DNA from: an uncultured Candidatus Saccharibacteria bacterium
GTDB taxonomy: Bacteria > Patescibacteriota > Minisyncoccia > Phycocordibacterales > PALSA-1337
Direction of reading: 5' to 3'
Assembly (NCBI GenBank): GCA_964416985.1
Contig: CAYQFS010000002.1
Coordinates: forward strand, 57,155 to 121,154
Length of the DNA: 64,000 nucleotides
Each line of letters starts with the position of its first letter. Within the stretch, counting starts at the first letter, position 1. A program made the position numbers and the translations under genes. This document shows positions 4,648 to 48,865 of this stretch, piece by piece. The notes below the pieces were generated by a model. It did not search any database, was not told the origin of the DNA, and saw only the letters and a list, made by a program, of their open reading frames with translations.

Positions 4648-6045
4648 ATGGAACGAACATACATCAAAGATTTGAAAGGGCAGGCAGGCAAGGAAGTCTC
4701 AATTTCGGGATGGATTGATATTCGACGTGACCAAGGAAAAATGGTTTTCTTTGACTTTCGAGACATGACAGGAAAAGTGCAGGGCGTGGTGCTCCCAAGC
4801 CAGACTGCCGCTCTCGAAGTTGCAAAAACTCTCCGACCAGAGTGGGTGGTTAGCGTCAAAGGAAAGGTCAATGCTCGGCCAGAAAAAAATATTCAAAAAG
4901 ATAAATTGAACGGAGACATCGAACTTGAGGTGTTTTCGATCTCAGTTTTAAATGAAGCTACAACACCGCCACTTGATGTCACTTCAGATGGAAAAGAAAT
5001 TGGGGAAGAGGTGAGACTCAAGTACCGTTACCTCGACCTTCGACGTCCTCGACTCCAAAAGAACGTCCGAAATCGCCACAAAGTTATCAAACTCATTAGA
5101 GACAATCTCGATGAAAAGGGCTTTATCGAAGTTGAGACTCCGCTTTTGAGCAAGTCTACTCCCGAAGGTTCTCGTGACTTCGTGGTGCCTTCACGTCTTG
5201 GAAAAGGAACTTTTTACGCGCTTCCACAATCCCCTCAGCAATACAAACAGCTCCTCATGACTGCTGGAATCGAAAAATATTTCCAGATTGCCCGATGCAT
5301 GCGAGACGAAGACACCCGCGGAGACCGCCAGCCCGAATTTACCCAGCTCGATCTCGAAATGAGTTTTCCGACTCAGGAAGATGTCATTCAATTAAATGAA
5401 GAGATGCTCATCAAACTTGTCAAAACTATCTACCCTGAAAAAAGAATTCAGAGCATTCCATTTCCTCGACTTACCTATGCCGAGGCAATGACAAAGTACA
5501 ATTCTGACAAGCCTGATATCCGGGAAAACAAAGAAGATCCAAATCTTCTCGCCTTTTGCTGGGTAATTGATTTTCCAATGTTTGAAAAAACTGACACTGG
5601 TGCGTGGACATTTACCCACAACCCTTTCTCAGGAGTTCAGGCACAACATGAGGCAGATCTCATGACTGCTAAAAATATCGAAAAGATTCTTGCCGTCCAA
5701 TACGACATTACTCTGAACGGTCATGAAATCGGAGGTGGAAGTGTGCGAAATCACAAACCCGAAGCTCTAAAAAAAGTTTTCCAGATCATGGGGTACTCCG
5801 ATGAACGCATCGAGGCAAACTTTGGTCACATGTTGAAGGCTCTTGGCTCAGGAACACCTCCACACGGAGGAATTGCATGGGGACTCGATCGACTGATGAT
5901 GATACTCGAAAATGAGCCAAACATCCGGGAGGTGATAGCATTTGCAAAGACGGGAGAAGGAAGAGATTTGATGATGGAGTCACCGTCAAGCATAAGTGAG
6001 GAGCAGTTGGAGGAGTTGGGGATAGAGGTAAAAGGGGAGGAGTAA
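4648..6045 (+). CDS. aspS: Aspartyl-tRNA synthetase, bacterial type but lacking the GAD insertion domain (about 466 aa)
   Basis: OB-fold N-terminus, then class II motifs (FYALPQSPQQYKQLLM, QIARCMRDEDTRGDRQPEFTQLDLEMSF, GGGSVRNH, GLDRLMM). An alternative TTG start at 4627 would overlap the trpS stop. Confidence 0.9.
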   Translation: MERTYIKDLKGQAGKEVSISGWIDIRRDQGKMVFFDFRDMTGKVQGVVLPSQTAALEVAKTLRPEWVVSVKGKVNARPEKNIQKDKLNGDIELEVFSISVLNEATTPPLDVTSDGKEIGEEVRLKYRYLDLRRPRLQKNVRNRHKVIKLIRDNLDEKGFIEVETPLLSKSTPEGSRDFVVPSRLGKGTFYALPQSPQQYKQLLMTAGIEKYFQIARCMRDEDTRGDRQPEFTQLDLEMSFPTQEDVIQLNEEMLIKLVKTIYPEKRIQSIPFPRLTYAEAMTKYNSDKPDIRENKEDPNLLAFCWVIDFPMFEKTDTGAWTFTHNPFSGVQAQHEADLMTAKNIEKILAVQYDITLNGHEIGGGSVRNHKPEALKKVFQIMGYSDERIEANFGHMLKALGSGTPPHGGIAWGLDRLMMILENEPNIREVIAFAKTGEGRDLMMESPSSISEEQLEELGIEVKGEE

Positions 6046-6071
6046 AAGGAAAGTGGTAAAATATCCTCATT

Positions 6072-6950
6072 ATGAAAACCTCGCTTAAGCGCATTACGAC
6101 AAAAGACAACATCGAGCTTGTTGGTCTTCTTCATGAGCCAGATACTGGTTCAGATACTGTTCTCGTGCATGTACACGGAATGGCAGGTAATTTTTATGAG
6201 AATAAGTTTCTTGATAACATTGCCGAAACTCTTACAAACTCTGGAATTGCTTTTTTTGCTTTTAATAATAGGGGATGTGAAAGTATCAAGGATCTTACTG
6301 CTACAGTTGACGGAAAAAAGAAATTCGTAAAAGTTGGAAATGCGTATGAAAAGTTCGAGGACTGCCTTTTAGATATTGGCGCTGCCATAGATGCAGTTTC
6401 AACTTGGGGTTTTTCCAAGATACATTTATCAGGCCACAGCCTTGGTAGCCCAAAAGTTTCCTATTATCTAGCAACTACAGCAGATAGTCGAGTAAATTCA
6501 GTTCTCCTATTGTCACCTTCAGATATGCTCGGCTTAGTTCGTAGTGATTCAGAAAGATTTAAAAAAGATATCAAGGAAGCAACTGACAAAGTTACTTCAG
6601 GAAGGGGAAATGAACTTCTCTCAACTCAAGTCTGGGATGAGTATCCTATAAGTGGAGCAACTTATCTAAGTTTATTTGGAGATGATTCTCCTGTTGCTGT
6701 GTTTAATTTTCATAAGCCCTCAGACAGGCTTGAAACTCTAGGCAAAATACACCAGCCACTCATAGTTATCATGGGTCGAAAAGATGATTCTCTTGTGGTG
6801 TCTATAGAAGAGACAATGGAAAGAATTACTAATGCCTGCACAAAAAGTCCACACGTAGAAACAGTAATACTTGGAGATGCAAATCATGGATATTTTGGAG
6901 ATGAACAGGCATTGGCTGATGCAATTAAGATATGGATTCTAAAAATATGA
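6072..6950 (+). CDS. Alpha/beta-hydrolase fold protein (GHSLG nucleophile elbow)
   Basis: HVHGMAGNFYEN ... HLSGHSLGSPKVSYY ... GDANHGYFGDE, consistent with a Ser/Asp/His hydrolase. There is no signal peptide. Confidence 0.75.
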   Translation: MKTSLKRITTKDNIELVGLLHEPDTGSDTVLVHVHGMAGNFYENKFLDNIAETLTNSGIAFFAFNNRGCESIKDLTATVDGKKKFVKVGNAYEKFEDCLLDIGAAIDAVSTWGFSKIHLSGHSLGSPKVSYYLATTADSRVNSVLLLSPSDMLGLVRSDSERFKKDIKEATDKVTSGRGNELLSTQVWDEYPISGATYLSLFGDDSPVAVFNFHKPSDRLETLGKIHQPLIVIMGRKDDSLVVSIEETMERITNACTKSPHVETVILGDANHGYFGDEQALADAIKIWILKI

Positions 6951-7825
6951 CCTACCCAATTGCTACAGTAAAAACAAAAGACGGTATCTGGCTGCATGGA
7001 CTTTTTTTGGACGTGGAAAAAGGTAAGACCGTTCTAATTAATATACATGGTACGGCAAGTAATTTCTACGAAGAGCATTTTATAGAAGTAATATCTAAAG
7101 TTTTTCCTGAAAAAGGCATCTCTGTACTTTCCACGAATAATAGAGGAACTGGCGTATATGACGCTTATCAGAAAACAGGTGCTGCTGTAGAAAAATTTGA
7201 AGAGTGTATTCTCGATATAAATGCCTGGATTGAACTTGTTCTTTCTAGGGGATATGAGAAGATTATTCTTTCTGGGCATAGTCTCGGAACTGAAAAGGTT
7301 GTCTACTACATGAGCAAAGGCACTTATGCTGATAAAATTTCAGGCCTTATTCTTTTTGCTCCCGCAGATTCTTATGGATCACACAGAACCCTGAATGGAA
7401 AAGATAATACGAAAATTAGGGAAAAAATAGAGGAGCTTCTTACAATATCAGAGCATATGGTAGAAAGAGGGCAAGGGGACGTCTTTCTTGCTAAAGATAC
7501 TTATGGTTCTCATACTGGAATTATGCCCAAAAGTGCTGAATCTCTAGTCAATTTTCTTGGCCGAAATTCAAAGGTTCTTGAAGGATTGCCTTTCGTCACC
7601 AGAAAACTAAAATCCTACAGTGAAATCAAAATTCCAATTTTTGTTGCAATTGGAGACAAGGAAGAATACACAGGGTTGACGGTCGTTGAGGCATTGGATC
7701 TCATGAAAAAGGAAAACTCACTCACTGAGATTACTCAATTCAAAAATTGTGATCATGATTTCCAAGGTTGTGAGAAAGAATTAACACAATCTGTACTTTC
7801 TTTCATCAAAAAACATGGATTCTAA
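6932..7825 (+). CDS. Alpha/beta-hydrolase fold protein, tandem paralog of the preceding gene
   Basis: INIHGTASNFYEE ... ILSGHSLGTEKVVYY ... NCDHDFQGCE. Architecture is collinear with the upstream hydrolase. Its start overlaps the upstream stop within the 14-mer ATGGATTCTAAAAA. Confidence 0.75.
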   Translation: MDSKNMTYPIATVKTKDGIWLHGLFLDVEKGKTVLINIHGTASNFYEEHFIEVISKVFPEKGISVLSTNNRGTGVYDAYQKTGAAVEKFEECILDINAWIELVLSRGYEKIILSGHSLGTEKVVYYMSKGTYADKISGLILFAPADSYGSHRTLNGKDNTKIREKIEELLTISEHMVERGQGDVFLAKDTYGSHTGIMPKSAESLVNFLGRNSKVLEGLPFVTRKLKSYSEIKIPIFVAIGDKEEYTGLTVVEALDLMKKENSLTEITQFKNCDHDFQGCEKELTQSVLSFIKKHGF

Positions 7826-8142: not shown

Positions 8143-8478
8143 ATGGCAACTATAGAAGATTTTCAGAAGTTAGATATTAGAACAGGAAAAATTATTGAAG
8201 TAAATGATTTCCCAGAAGCAAAGAAACCGGCATACAAACTGAGGATTGATTTTGGTCCTGAAATCGGAATCAAAAATTCTTCAGTCCAGATCGTTGCTCT
8301 ATATAAAAAAGAAGAACTCATTGGAAAATTAGTTCTTGGCGTGGTTAATTTTCCCCCTCGAAAAATAGGTCCATTTGAATCAGAAGTACTCACTCTTGGG
8401 GTACCTGACGGAGAAGGTAAGGTAATACTTATAACACCTAGTAAGGAAGGCGCCATGATTGGAGGAAAATTATTCTAG
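8143..8478 (+). CDS. csaA: tRNA-binding domain protein (CsaA / Trbp111 / MetRS C-terminal-like OB fold)
   Basis: MATIEDFQKLDIRTGKIIEVNDFPEAKKPAYKLRIDFG is typical of Myf-domain tRNA-binding proteins. Confidence 0.8.
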   Translation: MATIEDFQKLDIRTGKIIEVNDFPEAKKPAYKLRIDFGPEIGIKNSSVQIVALYKKEELIGKLVLGVVNFPPRKIGPFESEVLTLGVPDGEGKVILITPSKEGAMIGGKLF

Positions 8479-8493
8479 GTACAAATATAGCCC

Positions 8494-8521
8494 TTGACAC
8501 TTCCTCCCTCCATGCTATAGT
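8494..8521 (+). promoter_or_regulatory. Promoter TTGACA-N16-TGcTATAGT (extended -10)
   Basis: TTGACA at 8494-8499, a CT-rich spacer, then TGCTATAGT at 8513-8521. The -10 decamer is identical (ATGCTATAGT) to the promoter at 17135-17144. Confidence 0.5.
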
Positions 8522-8527
8522 AACCCC

Positions 8528-9022
8528 CAGAAACGAGCGGGGTTACCTCAATGGAGGTTGACTCTAATCGCTCAACAAACAAAAGCACAGACATGTACTC
8601 ATGAGCAAAAAAAGTGGAGTCCATCAAGCAGAAATCATTGAATTCGATGGCCGGTGCGGTACGGCACGCGTCACTGACCTCGATAACCGGATTGTAAAAA
8701 TCCATCGGAAATTCATGAGACATATCAGGGGTTCATGGATCTCTGACGAAGCATACCGGGGTGATACACAATTACTAATCGGCTCGAGACTTCAGATCGT
8801 TCTCATCATCGGCCACAGTGGGTGGGCGCGCGTATGGGGACTGAGTGCTGACTACCAGCCATCGGAGGCAGCAAAGCGCATAAAATCTCACTCAAATCGT
8901 GTGGCGCCATGGCACCAGACTCGGCAATCTCAATGTGTCGGAATGCGAGCCTAGGCAGAAAAATCTAATCACCAAAACCTTTTCAGGGACTGGGAGTCAC
9001 GCACTCCTGGTCCCGGTTTTTT
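8528..9022 (+). ncRNA. Candidate large structured ncRNA (about 495 nt), possibly RNase P RNA (rnpB); identity unverified
   Basis: A 580-bp interval between csaA and scpA with no convincing CDS, and local GC well above the genome background. It has its own promoter and a terminal hairpin plus U-run. Several short matches to bacterial RNase P RNA occur in the same order as in E. coli M1 RNA: TCCATCAAGCAG vs UCCAUAGGGCAG, GATGGCC, GGTGCGGTA, GGGGTTCAT, and CAGACTCGGCAATC vs CAGAACCCGGCUUAUC. The P5.1-P9 region would have to be much reduced. Confidence 0.45.
8985..9022 (+). terminator. Intrinsic terminator (GGGACTGGGAGT / ACTCCTGGTCCC stem with two G-U pairs, then a T7 run)
   Basis: The hairpin is immediately followed by GGTTTTTTT. 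It lies 40 nt upstream of the scpA promoter. Confidence 0.6.
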
Positions 9023-43469: not shown

Positions 43470-43495
43470 ATAGATAAAATTAGGAATTAGTCAAA

Positions 43496-43521
43496 AAACC
43501 CTTATTTTGTTAGGGTTTTTT
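43496..43521 (+). terminator. Intrinsic terminator AACCCT-N9-AGGGTT then TTTTTGTTTG
   Basis: Directly after the DsbA-like stop. Confidence 0.55.
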
Positions 43522-43526
43522 GTTTG

Positions 43527-43556
43527 TTGACAAATAGGTACTAAACGTGCTATAAT
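43527..43556 (+). promoter_or_regulatory. Strong consensus promoter TTGACA-N18-TGcTATAAT
   Basis: Perfect -35 and -10 hexamers with an extended TG. Spacer is 18 nt. Confidence 0.6.
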
Positions 43557-43563
43557 AGTACAA

Positions 43564-43755
43564 GTTGAGAACGTTGAAATCTTACTATCTTAGGAAATGT
43601 CTGACTTTCTCCAGTTGGAGCAGCATCTTGAATATCTCCTCGCGATTGCGAACGAGGTAAACAAGAAAACTGCTCCAGCAAACAAACGGAGCGAGCCAGT
43701 CACCTGGGTAACAACATGGTGAGCTAGTCCGCGAGACTGCAGAAAATCTGCAAAC
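43564..43755 (+). promoter_or_regulatory. Long (about 192 nt) structured 5' leader; candidate cis-regulatory RNA
   Basis: Nested helices GGAGCAG ... CTGCTCC and CCTCG ... CGAGG. A hairpin CTGCAG-aaaat-CTGCA ends 5 nt before the ATG. Such a leader is unusual here, where most genes have leaders of 0-20 nt. Confidence 0.35.
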
Positions 43756-44670
43756 ATGAACGCAATCGAAAATAATACCGTTAAGCTTGCTAGTCACTTC
43801 CAACGCGGTGGTTGGGTCAGTCGGTGGGATGGACAGAAGTTTGTTAAAATCGCTCATGCCGCCGAAAACACGTGGCATGATGATGGCGACGACAGCAAGG
43901 TTGTTGTCCTGCCGGAAGGTTTCAAGGGTGCAGTTGGTGAGTTCCACGGCGTGTCGTCGTTGAGCTATCAGAGCTCGGTCACATTGATTGGATTCAATGA
44001 TGAGGAGCTCAATACTCCCTCACCGGTTCAAGGTTGGGACAATGTTGGTGTTGGATTTCGTGCCGAAAGGTGCGAACTGATCAGGAACCTTGGGGACTAC
44101 CTCAAGGCCCTTGCCAACAACTCGTTCGTCCCCATTCCTGAAGAGGGTTATGTACACCCAGTCTCCGGTAATCGCCTCGTCGAACTTCCCTTCGATTGGG
44201 GTGATCAGGCCGCGAATCACTACGCAGTGATTTCACCGAAGGGCGAGATTCTCTACGAAAGAAGCGGCTGCGCAGACAATGCCCCTGACCCTATCAAGGG
44301 CGAGGACGATTGGGAGTTTACTTCCTTTCGTTGCGATCAAGAACACGAACAGCACGAGTGCAACGAGCGCAACAACGCCGCACTCAAAGCAGGCTGGTCC
44401 GAAAGATGGCAAGAAGTTGCCAACCACATCCGTTCCTGCTACAGGGTCGGCCAAAATCCTCTGCCGACACTTCGAAAGAAGTATCCCGGGGTATGGAAAT
44501 ACCTAGCTCAAGGCAGCGACCAACCAGACAGCATCGTGGGTGAAATCCGATTCACCCAACTCCCCCAAAATGAAAACGGAACGGCCATTGCACCGAAGCT
44601 CGAATATGTCGACTTCTGGGGCAATGTTTGGAATCGGTGGCAGGTAAGTTATATCCCTGCCAAAAAGTAA
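43756..44670 (+). CDS. Hypothetical cytoplasmic Cys/His/Trp-rich protein (304 aa), GC-elevated gene
   Basis: Intact ORF with about 52% GC. No signal peptide. Motifs RCDQEHEQHECNERN, SGCADNAPDP. No family recognised. Confidence 0.5.
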   Translation: MNAIENNTVKLASHFQRGGWVSRWDGQKFVKIAHAAENTWHDDGDDSKVVVLPEGFKGAVGEFHGVSSLSYQSSVTLIGFNDEELNTPSPVQGWDNVGVGFRAERCELIRNLGDYLKALANNSFVPIPEEGYVHPVSGNRLVELPFDWGDQAANHYAVISPKGEILYERSGCADNAPDPIKGEDDWEFTSFRCDQEHEQHECNERNNAALKAGWSERWQEVANHIRSCYRVGQNPLPTLRKKYPGVWKYLAQGSDQPDSIVGEIRFTQLPQNENGTAIAPKLEYVDFWGNVWNRWQVSYIPAKK

Positions 44671-44741
44671 GATGAAACGCTGGAGAGCGTTCGATAAATA
44701 CTCAACCCCTTGCACGTTTGGTGCCTGGGGTTTTATTGTGT

Positions 44742-47773: not shown

Positions 47774-48865
47774 TTAAGCAACTATCTGCCAATCCATTTT
47801 TTCTCCCGCAAAAAACGGGATGATGCTGTCATTGAGTGCAGGTACGGGAACTTCGGTAGGAACGATCCATTCTGAACGGCGGAGGACCAGTTCTCCCTCG
47901 TTCAATTCATACCCATAAAAACGGGCACCAAATTCCGAAAGGAACGGTTCAGCCTTTTCAAGCTTGCCACGACTCTCAAAGAAGGAGAGTACGAGCGACA
48001 ACGCAGGAATGGTAACCCACACACCGCACGGACAATCGTTCGGCGCCTGTTTTGCACTTAAGAGATGTGCTGCGTCATCTCCGGCATACCAGAAGCGAGG
48101 ATGACCAGAAAGAATCACCTCTTGAATGGCTGCGCGATCTTCCGGATCCTTGGCTCCAGGTTTGAAGGCACCAGTGTGAACACAGATCTTGCCTTTACTC
48201 CGTCTGCTGTAACCAGAGAGATCATCTGACGTGAGATAAATGTGCTGAACAGTAACCCCTGCTCCAACATTCTCTCCCTGATCCTTGACCCATTCAACCA
48301 TGTCCCGCGAAGAAACATGTTCGACACTGATTTTCAAACTTGGAATCGCAGCAGTGATGAGCGAGAGAATTGCTCTGAAAGCAGACTCCTTGAGACGACC
48401 AATAACATCATAAGAGGGATGCTCGGAATGAAACTGAGCAACCATACCTAGCTCTGCAACAACGTGCAGTGCTGGATAGATCTTGAGGTAATCGAGAACT
48501 CCATTTTCTGAATGAGTCGTGACGTACCGCGGATAGATCTTTACGATCCTGACACCACAAGCAAATGCCTCACGCACCATTTTTGGAGTAGTCGACTCCG
48601 TAATCTGAATCGTCATCACAAGCTCGAAATACTGCCCTTGTGTAAAGGTCTTTGCAATCGCTTCGATGCTGTCCTTATAGGCGACCGCCTGTGGACCTGT
48701 CAGGATAGCGGGGAGAGTATTCGGCTCCCCCACCACCCTTCGGCGCCAGCCGTGATTGACGAAGTATGGCACAAGAAATTCGAGTAACTTTTCTTGCCTG
48801 AAATGCGCATGCCAGTTGTCTGGTAAGCGCAGAATAACTGTATTTATGTCTTCACTTATGTTCAT
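47774..48865 (-). CDS. pyrC: Dihydroorotase, class II (E. coli PyrC type); GC-elevated, SD-bearing gene
   Basis: LPDNWHAHFRQEKLLEFLVPYF vs E. coli [27 protein letters not shown] vs CGCAGC. C-terminal PFFAGEKMDWQIVA vs PFLAGETVRWSVKQ. GGAAGG lies 8 nt upstream of the ATG, a Shine-Dalgarno that native neighbours lack. Confidence 0.8.
   Translation of the reverse strand: MNISEDINTVILRLPDNWHAHFRQEKLLEFLVPYFVNHGWRRRVVGEPNTLPAILTGPQAVAYKDSIEAIAKTFTQGQYFELVMTIQITESTTPKMVREAFACGVRIVKIYPRYVTTHSENGVLDYLKIYPALHVVAELGMVAQFHSEHPSYDVIGRLKESAFRAILSLITAAIPSLKISVEHVSSRDMVEWVKDQGENVGAGVTVQHIYLTSDDLSGYSRRSKGKICVHTGAFKPGAKDPEDRAAIQEVILSGHPRFWYAGDDAAHLLSAKQAPNDCPCGVWVTIPALSLVLSFFESRGKLEKAEPFLSEFGARFYGYELNEGELVLRRSEWIVPTEVPVPALNDSIIPFFAGEKMDWQIVA

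Follow-up and report, generated by a model that had tools for sequence, protein, structure and literature searches.

What a long, structured leader RNA does in front of a single gene, whose protein resembles no family that we could recognize, is the question raised by a locus of an uncultured Candidatus Saccharibacteria bacterium. The locus lies in a stretch of 64,000 nucleotides (nt) of contig CAYQFS010000002.1 (assembly GCA_964416985.1, positions 57,155 to 121,154), hereafter called the window, and consists of a promoter, a 5′ leader, and an open reading frame (ORF) for a protein of 304 amino acids (aa). An earlier reading, made from the letters of the window without database searches (the sequence-only reading), had likened the leader to a riboswitch or an attenuator. 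We propose, at a probability of roughly 0.45, that the leader is an undescribed cis-acting RNA, whose core may sense a conserved partner and gate translation initiation, in a riboswitch-like mode of OFF control. Cis-regulatory structured leaders are well known; the motif described here, its partnership with a novel protein domain, its occurrence in two size classes, and its cassette behavior in the Candidate Phyla Radiation (CPR, or Patescibacteria) appear to be undescribed. The promoter, the leader, and the ORF have the following features.

43527..43556, plus strand: sigma-70 consensus promoter, −10 element of the extended type, TTGACA-N18-TG-c-TATAAT
43564..43755, plus strand: 5′ leader of ~192 nt, with a putative start ~7 nt past the −10 box (~43563/4) and the ATG at 43756
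43574..43579, plus strand: 5′-proximal UUGAAA element, nearly invariant columns in the long-form alignment A5
43615..43678, plus strand: rod-like 5′ domain of ~65 nt, long forms only (RNAalifold consensus)
43689..43759, plus strand: core motif, the 3′ ~70 nt common to long and short forms (covariance model R1)
43696..43707, plus strand: hairpin P-a, CCA(G)...(C)UGG, with an invariant G-UCAC in the loop
43700..43722, plus strand: putative pseudoknot helix S2, UCACC (43700-43704) with GGUGA (43718-43722)
43721..43726, plus strand: invariant linker GAGYUA (alignments A2 and A5)
43726..43738, plus strand: hairpin P-c, AGUC, loop CGCGA, GACU
43738..43752, plus strand: hairpin P-d, (U)GCAG-AAAAU-CUGC(A), with 3-4 nt between its end and the ATG
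43756..44670, plus strand: 304-aa ORF, with an N-terminal beta-rich module (~1-185) and a C-terminal alpha/beta domain (~186-304) that contains NPLPTLRKKYPGVW

The promoter, called perfect by the sequence-only reading, indeed scores 12/12 (−35 TTGACA at 43527-43532, an 18-nt spacer, TG at 43548-43549, −10 TATAAT at 43551-43556), and no other site of this kind exists in the 64 kb, where dinucleotide shuffles give 0.03. The leader that follows is considerably more stable than its shuffled versions: its minimum free energy (MFE) is −67.4 kcal/mol, compared to −48.1 ± 4.1 kcal/mol in the shuffles (z = −4.76), none of which, out of 200, was as stable. Shine–Dalgarno (SD)-like motifs precede 4 of the 46 long ORFs of the window, so that SD use by the host is minimal, while a −10-like TAnn[AT]T box ends 4-14 nt before the ATG in 16 of the 46 ORFs, versus 8.6% of random positions. 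Many host mRNAs are probably leaderless or very short-leadered; a leader of 192 nt is therefore exceptional in the window, and it is plausible that this ORF is the only window gene with a long 5′ untranslated region (UTR).

The leader is not restricted to the window. It was found in 17 of 17 distinct protein-anchored loci (the window included) from CPR/Patescibacteria metagenome-assembled genomes (MAGs) and metagenomes, and in the upstream DNA of these homologues the whole leader is kept even at ~40-50% protein identity. An exact 19-mer core is present in 15 of the 17 loci, and compensated variants of it in the other two. Among the loci found through the protein, the exact core occurs at L081, L085, L086, L088, and L090, while L089 and L091 have variant cores with compensatory changes; loci found without recourse to the RNA thus also carry it, and a search with the exact pattern therefore inflates the apparent invariance only slightly. 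A promoter-like site occupies the same position in 8 of 10 other loci with the long form of the gene (defined below), and in 15 of the 24 short-form loci examined. A scan of the window against Rfam at the gathering threshold yielded 0 matches; at E ≤ 10, the window leader gave terminator-like or chance matches only (E at least 0.07), and at E ≤ 1, nothing was matched on the leaders of eight short-form loci. Known RNA families, including known riboswitch classes, can thus be set aside as the identity of the leader in both forms; the leader is nonetheless conserved in all homologous loci, and its helices covary there.

Gene callers ran several homologous ORFs through the leader, and one could therefore suppose that it acts not as RNA but as coding sequence (an N-terminal extension, either broken or alternative), or as a DNA site, such as an operator or a recombination site. 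In-frame stop codons are found 8-38 codons upstream of the ATG, in varying frames, in 11 of 11 long-form loci, which excludes an extension of the ORF and makes the leader non-coding. Leader indels are not multiples of 3, and five helices show compensatory changes. Taken together, the stops, the indels, and the compensatory pairs effectively refute the supposition, and we give it almost no credence. The “peptides” of such extensions in several database homologues (ELVRETAENL...) are translations of the leader, and database calls P0003, P0008, P0009, P0010, P0014, P0019, and P0024 are false N-terminal extensions of this kind. At L090 (2839-3450), the gene call (P0104) begins 54 codons too late, another annotation artefact caused by the leader.

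Most of the conservation resides in the core. The covariance model R1, built from the core alignment, has one match in the window (75.1 bits, E 2.4e-17) and a single match per locus in 46 CPR-type loci elsewhere. The stem of P-a varies from 3 to 7 bp, with 23 distinct stem pairs; in 27 distinct sequences, it is 80% paired, all five pairs tested change on both sides, and its covariation of 0.69 compares to 0.25 in shuffles, 0/500 of which reached it. The UCAC(N) segment in the P-a loop can pair with (N′)GUGA located 15-35 nt downstream, giving helix S2 with four invariant pairs and one covarying pair (CG in 11 cases, AU in seven, and UA in two, with mismatches in 8/28). Judged by this complementarity, P-a and S2 can form a classical H-type pseudoknot, with loops L1 of 1 nt, L2 of 0-2 nt, and L3 of at least 7 nt; in homologues, L3 may hold an optional hairpin, P-b.

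Downstream of the GAGYUA linker, P-c follows the general form (A)RUC-CGCGA-GAY(U). The core search pattern permitted all four R-Y combinations; the pair is GC in 20 sequences and AU in eight, without a single mismatch. The fourth pair of P-c changes from A-U to U-A in L089 and to C-G in L091, both of which were found through the protein. The hairpin that the sequence-only reading had seen abutting the ATG is real: it corresponds to P-d, whose window strands GCAG (43739-43742) and CUGC (43748-43751) covary, and all of the variants pair (GCAG/CUGC, GUGG/CCAC, GGAG/CUCC, and AUGG/CCAU). When S2, P-c, and P-d are considered together, 94.3% of cells are paired and 27 are double-change cells, versus 7.0 in shuffles (0/500). 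Invariant nucleotides are concentrated in loops and the linker (G-UCAC, GAGYUA, and CGCGA), and ~45 core positions are nearly invariant. Covarying helices combined with conserved unpaired nucleotides are a hallmark of riboswitch-type RNAs. A 5′ closing helix, GGUCU/GAGACU, appears in one MFE structure; it was rejected, since it competes with the perfectly covarying R-Y pair of P-c, and sequences of the A-U type fail to compensate.

The nested helices of the sequence-only reading belong to the 5′ domain, in which GGAGCAG (43617-43623) pairs with CUGCUCC (43670-43676), and CUUG with CAAG, around a variable apical hairpin, formed in the window by CCUCG (43638-43642) and CGAGG (43653-43657). These helices, too, are borne out by comparison: across 11 long-form sequences, 94.8% of cells are paired and eight pairs have changed on both sides, a result matched by 2/500 shuffles. 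RNAalifold also pairs distal AGC/GCU and GGA/UCC segments in long forms, which short forms and variants lack, and the Y of GAGYUA covaries with an upstream AGC/AAC in the long forms. By eye, the short-form counterpart of the UUGAAA element is YUUUGAcAUA.

The core extends beyond the set of loci found through the protein. A scan of metagenome contigs for the 3′ core, GAGYTARTCCGCGAGAYTG, returned 63 loci, of which ~35 are true; the remaining matches are due to chance and lie inside coding sequences of unrelated organisms. True instances end 1-4 nt before a start codon. Beyond the protein-anchored set, ~30 loci carry the core, and they do so in front of small proteins of 135-190 aa, which align to the C-terminal domain only and share the motif NPLPxLRKxFPxxxW. 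As the small proteins have just this domain in common with the 304-aa protein, we regard the window gene as the long form, with an added N-terminal protein module and an added 5′ RNA domain. Overall, the core RNA and the C-terminal domain occur together in ~40 of 42 loci. At L012 (~8223-8714, oriented coordinates) and L071 (~5767-6177), the core precedes ORFs that do not belong to the family; these encode a soluble protein of 163 aa and a membrane protein of 136 aa, respectively, and the L071 core has no P-d. There are no core matches in viral contigs, and a phage origin was rejected on this ground. No further copies of the core were found in the window.

The sequence-only reading had recognized no protein family, and had named a match to a familiar one beforehand as an outcome that would speak against it. 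No such match was found. Searches of the window protein against Pfam, NCBIfam, PADLOC, and PDB sequences returned nothing, and a single PHROG match was non-significant (E 0.19), so a known family was rejected as its identity. A word-based search of 5.8 billion proteins gave 20 clusters, all “hypothetical”, and a second such search with the small-protein profile gave nine proteins only; the family became visible when 1.84 billion representatives were scanned in full with a HMMER profile, which gave 126 clusters at E ≤ 1e-3. The family can be placed in the CPR/Patescibacteria from its named sources, MAGs of Candidatus Saccharibacteria, Paceibacteria, and Ryanbacteria. AlphaFold2 modeled the whole protein with a predicted local distance difference test (pLDDT) score of 88.9, and the C-terminal domain with 90.5. 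The signature of this domain is Y..G.NPLP.LRK.FP...W, followed by DFVW and FVTA strands. The family has diverged to ~20% identity, and its invariant residues are P, L, L, R, and W only, with N nearly so. The proteins are acidic to neutral (isoelectric point ~5.2 in long forms, and a median of 6.7 in short forms), and no RNA-binding domain or fold was found in the window protein. The clustered Cys and His residues, which had suggested a metal site, did not hold up: there are five Cys and nine His in the 304 aa, the residues of RCDQEHEQHEC vary or are deleted in homologues, so the would-be ligands are not conserved, and C172 of the SGCGD motif is the sole nearly invariant Cys.

The RNA is thus nearly invariant while the proteins diverge, and whatever the RNA binds must therefore be very conserved. 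One candidate is the protein itself. The leader would then be an autogenous translational operator, in which the protein, through the NPLPxLRKxFPxxxW patch of its C-terminal domain, represses translation of its own mRNA by binding the P-c/P-d/pseudoknot core. RNA and domain occur together and are transferred as a unit, the most conserved stretch of this fast-evolving protein contains Arg and Lys, and a strong constitutive promoter followed by post-transcriptional restraint is typical of feedback loops. We nevertheless consider an autogenous operator of this precise form rather unlikely, and slightly favor a small-molecule ligand over the conserved patch of the protein, because the RNA is nearly invariant next to proteins that are acidic to neutral and ~20% identical, because an RNA-binding fold is missing, and because the pnuC/NAD+-II riboswitch, discussed below, sets a precedent for association with one gene family. 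Identification of the leader as a riboswitch is unproven, and binding by the protein is an equally live option.

There is no terminator-like site (a hairpin with a U-tract) between the promoter and the ATG (43557-43755); in the window, P-d is followed by AAAC-AUG, with no U-tract. Of the two possibilities raised by the sequence-only reading, a riboswitch-type leader is plausible, and an attenuator is not. Since a terminator is absent and the last hairpin lies on the site for ribosome binding (RBS) and on the start region, control, if any, should be exerted at translation initiation. In the mechanism that we envisage, the conserved partner would bind the core, and the bound core would lock P-c and P-d, together with the RBS and the start region, into a compact fold, so that initiation would be gated in the OFF direction. 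In short forms, the 5′ strand and the loop of P-d hold a GGAG SD sequence, 8 nt before the AUG, and in SD-using hosts P-d would sequester this ribosome-binding site. The partner could be a small molecule, possibly one tied to nucleotide or DNA metabolism.

The position of the core at the start codon could also mean that the leader senses nothing, and serves as a constitutive 5′ stabilizer or an initiation platform (a ribosome standby site or enhancer). A largely SD-less or leaderless host might need a special leader, and the invariance of the RNA would be explained if it bound RNases or the ribosome, which is itself invariant. On the other hand, a general enhancer would be expected before many families, while the core is confined to one, P-d occludes the SD rather than exposing it, and such conservation of a pseudoknot is unusual in simple stabilizers. 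A leader of purely structural function accordingly seems quite improbable to us.

Several observations weigh against the sensing model. The evidence for the pseudoknot helix consists of one covarying pair, in which 8 of 28 sequences are mismatched. The nested MFE structures of short forms are no better than those of shuffles (z from −0.06 to −1.9), as is expected for pseudoknots, and an alternative (anti-sequestor) fold supported by covariation was not found. The transcription start was placed from the −10 box only. In the window copy, P-d contains no SD and the host hardly uses one, and sequestration of the RBS is therefore not the literal mechanism there. A protein of unknown function gives no clue to the ligand, and the theme among the neighboring genes (see below) ignores the phylogenetic non-independence of the loci. 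Finally, the link of a single RNA to a single protein family is characteristic, too, of autogenous control, or of an RNA–protein module.

That last possibility is best considered in the light of the genomic contexts. Similarity between loci runs from the −35 box to past an intrinsic terminator, and, on this comparison, promoter, leader, ORF, and terminator constitute a self-contained expression cassette that is specific to CPR/Patescibacteria. Its boundaries and other elements outside the leader and ORF are as follows.

43493..43522, plus strand: intrinsic terminator of the upstream DsbA-like gene, AAAAACCC-loop-GGGTTTTT, the left cassette boundary
44675..44692, plus strand: 3′-UTR hairpin AACGCU...AGCGUU, directly past the stop codon (called on the minus strand)
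44705..44738, plus strand: intrinsic terminator, CCCC..GGGG then UUUUAUU, the right cassette boundary
L003 ~6935-7000, L085 ~6975-7030, L086 ~7000-7050: second 3′-UTR element

Weak terminator-type Rfam matches are confined to the left boundary. Loci L001, L010, and L011 carry a terminator homologous to that at the right boundary, past which similarity stops. A hairpin resembling 44675..44692 is present in L001 and L010, and these two loci and the window have in common both the 3′ hairpin and a CAACCCC..GGGGUUUUAUU terminator. The second 3′-UTR element lies past the terminator, consists of CUUUAUUGAGUUCAU, a hairpin, and UCAUAGAGU, and is conserved in three long-form loci. A 15-nt inverted repeat, 87% complementary, flanks the cassette in the window (43536-43550, in the promoter spacer, and 44712-44726, in the terminator stem). 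It was rejected as a pair of terminal inverted repeats; it is not evident in homologous cassettes, and is probably due to chance. Neither element ends nor target duplications were detected around the cassette.

The cassette is found in varied surroundings, of which the following were recorded.

L001 and L082: uvrA/uvrC/ddl
L081: uvrB
L086: NUDIX and type I restriction-modification (RM) genes
L085 and L090: TrmB and RNase Y genes
L087 5082-7577 and L003 5086-7776: map–ndk junction, where the ribosomal-protein/secY/adk operon ends

At the map–ndk junction, the cassette has the orientation of the operon in L087 and is inverted in L003, implying, from the arrangement of the two loci, independent insertion or inversion. 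The foreign-looking composition noted by the sequence-only reading was confirmed (the window ORF has a GC content of 52.1%, and 56.7% at third codon positions (GC3), versus 42.9% for the window and a GC3 of 0.38-0.48 in five neighboring genes), and it holds in other hosts as well: long-form ORFs have 48-58% GC across hosts of 35-52% GC. Contigs are often broken within the leader (L009, L040, L068, and L072). The varied contexts, the host-independent GC, and the contig breaks suggest horizontal spread or a constraint at the nucleotide level.

These properties would also suit a stable, processed non-coding RNA that forms the RNA half of an RNA–protein module (a type III-like toxin–antitoxin (TA) system, a defense cassette, or another ribonucleoprotein) and spreads horizontally as a selfish or defense unit. 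Such a unit would be expressed from the strongest promoter of the window and carry its own terminator; occupation of the map–ndk site in both orientations, an ORF GC near 50% whatever the host, fast-evolving proteins, contig breaks inside the leader, and some neighbors that are RM or anti-CRISPR (Acr)-like genes all fit with it. Against it stand the lack of tandem RNA repeats and of a terminator between RNA and ORF, the lack of PADLOC, ToxN, or AbiQ matches, the single copy per locus (one in the window), and the absence of matches in viral contigs. In addition, two clades show conserved synteny, which indicates long vertical residence, and the overlap of the RNA with the RBS and start region is a better fit to cis control. 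We therefore judge a module of this kind improbable.

In the first of these clades (group A), a PaaX_M-like gene is divergent from the cassette, which lies within a dCMP-deaminase/folA/thyA ... glyA/tmk cluster; an operon with glyA was rejected, as the cassette has its own terminator. In the second (group B), the cassette has upstream of it genes for an MscS-like membrane protein and a pseudouridine synthase of the RluA type. L012, L014, L021, and L050/L075 share a conserved block, TATATGCTATCGC[AT][AT]AAAGTTAGTGTATATTGAC, ~60-100 nt upstream of the core; it separates the PaaX_M-like gene from the promoter of the cassette, a location that makes it a probable operator for the PaaX_M-like regulator. 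At L064 (1316-1370, plus strand), ~0.5 kb downstream of a short-form gene that has the leader, a type III hammerhead ribozyme (RF00008) was matched with 41.3 bits (E 4.4e-6), below the gathering threshold of 48.5. In the window, the neighbors are an upstream gene for a DsbA-like thioredoxin protein and a downstream gene for a UvrD-helicase/PD-(D/E)XK nuclease, with which the gene is convergent, as had been described. Genes further away are of the housekeeping type (HisRS, a 3′-5′ exonuclease, a YgjP-like peptidase, Pol IV, and RpoD). A 363-aa ORF (47774-48865, minus strand) has no Pfam match at E ≤ 1e-4 and a somewhat high local GC of 0.49. There are no tRNA genes in the 64-kb window.

Recurrent neighbors across loci are thyA-folA-glyA-tmk-dCMP deaminase, ndk/adk, NUDIX, uvrA/B/C, and dinB with the UvrD-nuclease gene. 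From gene order, this nucleotide/DNA-metabolism neighborhood is a lead rather than a demonstrated association. A tentative extension of the sensing model, which we regard as somewhat unlikely in its entirety, is that the core is the aptamer of a new CPR riboswitch class, or the RNA half of a new RNA–protein module, that travels with its effector gene as a mobile cassette and reports a nucleotide, thymidylate, or DNA-damage-related signal.

The CPR/Patescibacteria account for a large part of the diversity of bacteria, and gene regulation in them is almost unknown; in the paper library covered, a search on CPR taxa (Parcubacteria and Saccharibacteria) combined with RNA motifs or candidate riboswitches retrieved nothing relevant. 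The locus offers a compact motif, with five covarying helices and ~45 nearly invariant nucleotides, and a new protein domain in 126 representative clusters. Should the RNA be a metabolite sensor, it would give a pointer to what the protein family does, and to a physiological signal that matters to these episymbionts; should its partner be its own protein, a new RNA-binding domain would be defined. In either case, systematic gene-calling errors, in the form of extensions into the leader, are flagged in public CPR annotations.

It is instructive to compare the leader and its gene with systems of similar design. In type III TA systems (ToxIN, CptIN, and TenpIN), a strong promoter drives a structured, pseudoknotted RNA and a small protein gene in a compact mobile unit. 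The cassette resembles them in the order of promoter, structured RNA, and protein gene within a compact unit, but it has no tandem repeats (none were found at 43500-43755) and no terminator between RNA and ORF, and its RNA overlaps the RBS. Neither long nor short proteins match the ToxN, AbiQ, CptN, or TenpN families in Pfam or PADLOC. The omega-RNA of IscB/IsrB (HEARO) and the bridge RNA of IS110 are structured RNAs of ~180-200 nt that are encoded immediately upstream of a single ORF and move together with it. The leader belongs to the same size class and is likewise placed directly upstream of a single ORF; unlike in IscB/IsrB and IS110, the window protein has no RuvC, HNH, or DEDD domain by Pfam, the leader has no HEARO match, the short-form proteins, at 135 aa, are too small, and element ends and target duplications are lacking.

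The mRNAs of E. coli rpsO (bound by S15) and the alpha operon (bound by S4), and that of phage T4 gene 32, contain autoregulatory pseudoknots at the translation start of the regulator itself. They share with our leader the position of the pseudoknot at the translation start and the pairing of one RNA with one protein, whereas the window-family protein is acidic and not a known nucleic-acid binder, and its RNA is more conserved than the protein. The pnuC/NAD+-II riboswitch is nearly exclusive to one gene family, and its pseudoknot sequesters the RBS, for which translational OFF control was proposed (PMC7749635). The leader differs from it in being restricted to CPR, in having no Rfam match, in regulating (if it does so) a protein without known function, in its additional hairpins P-c and P-d with invariant loops and its optional 65-nt 5′ domain, and in the lack of an SD in the window copy. 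Like NAD+-II, it is a short conserved 5′ leader that abuts the RBS and start codon, is predicted to fold into a pseudoknot, and is associated with one gene family. Other small riboswitches built on H-type pseudoknots are preQ1-I, SAM-II, and fluoride.

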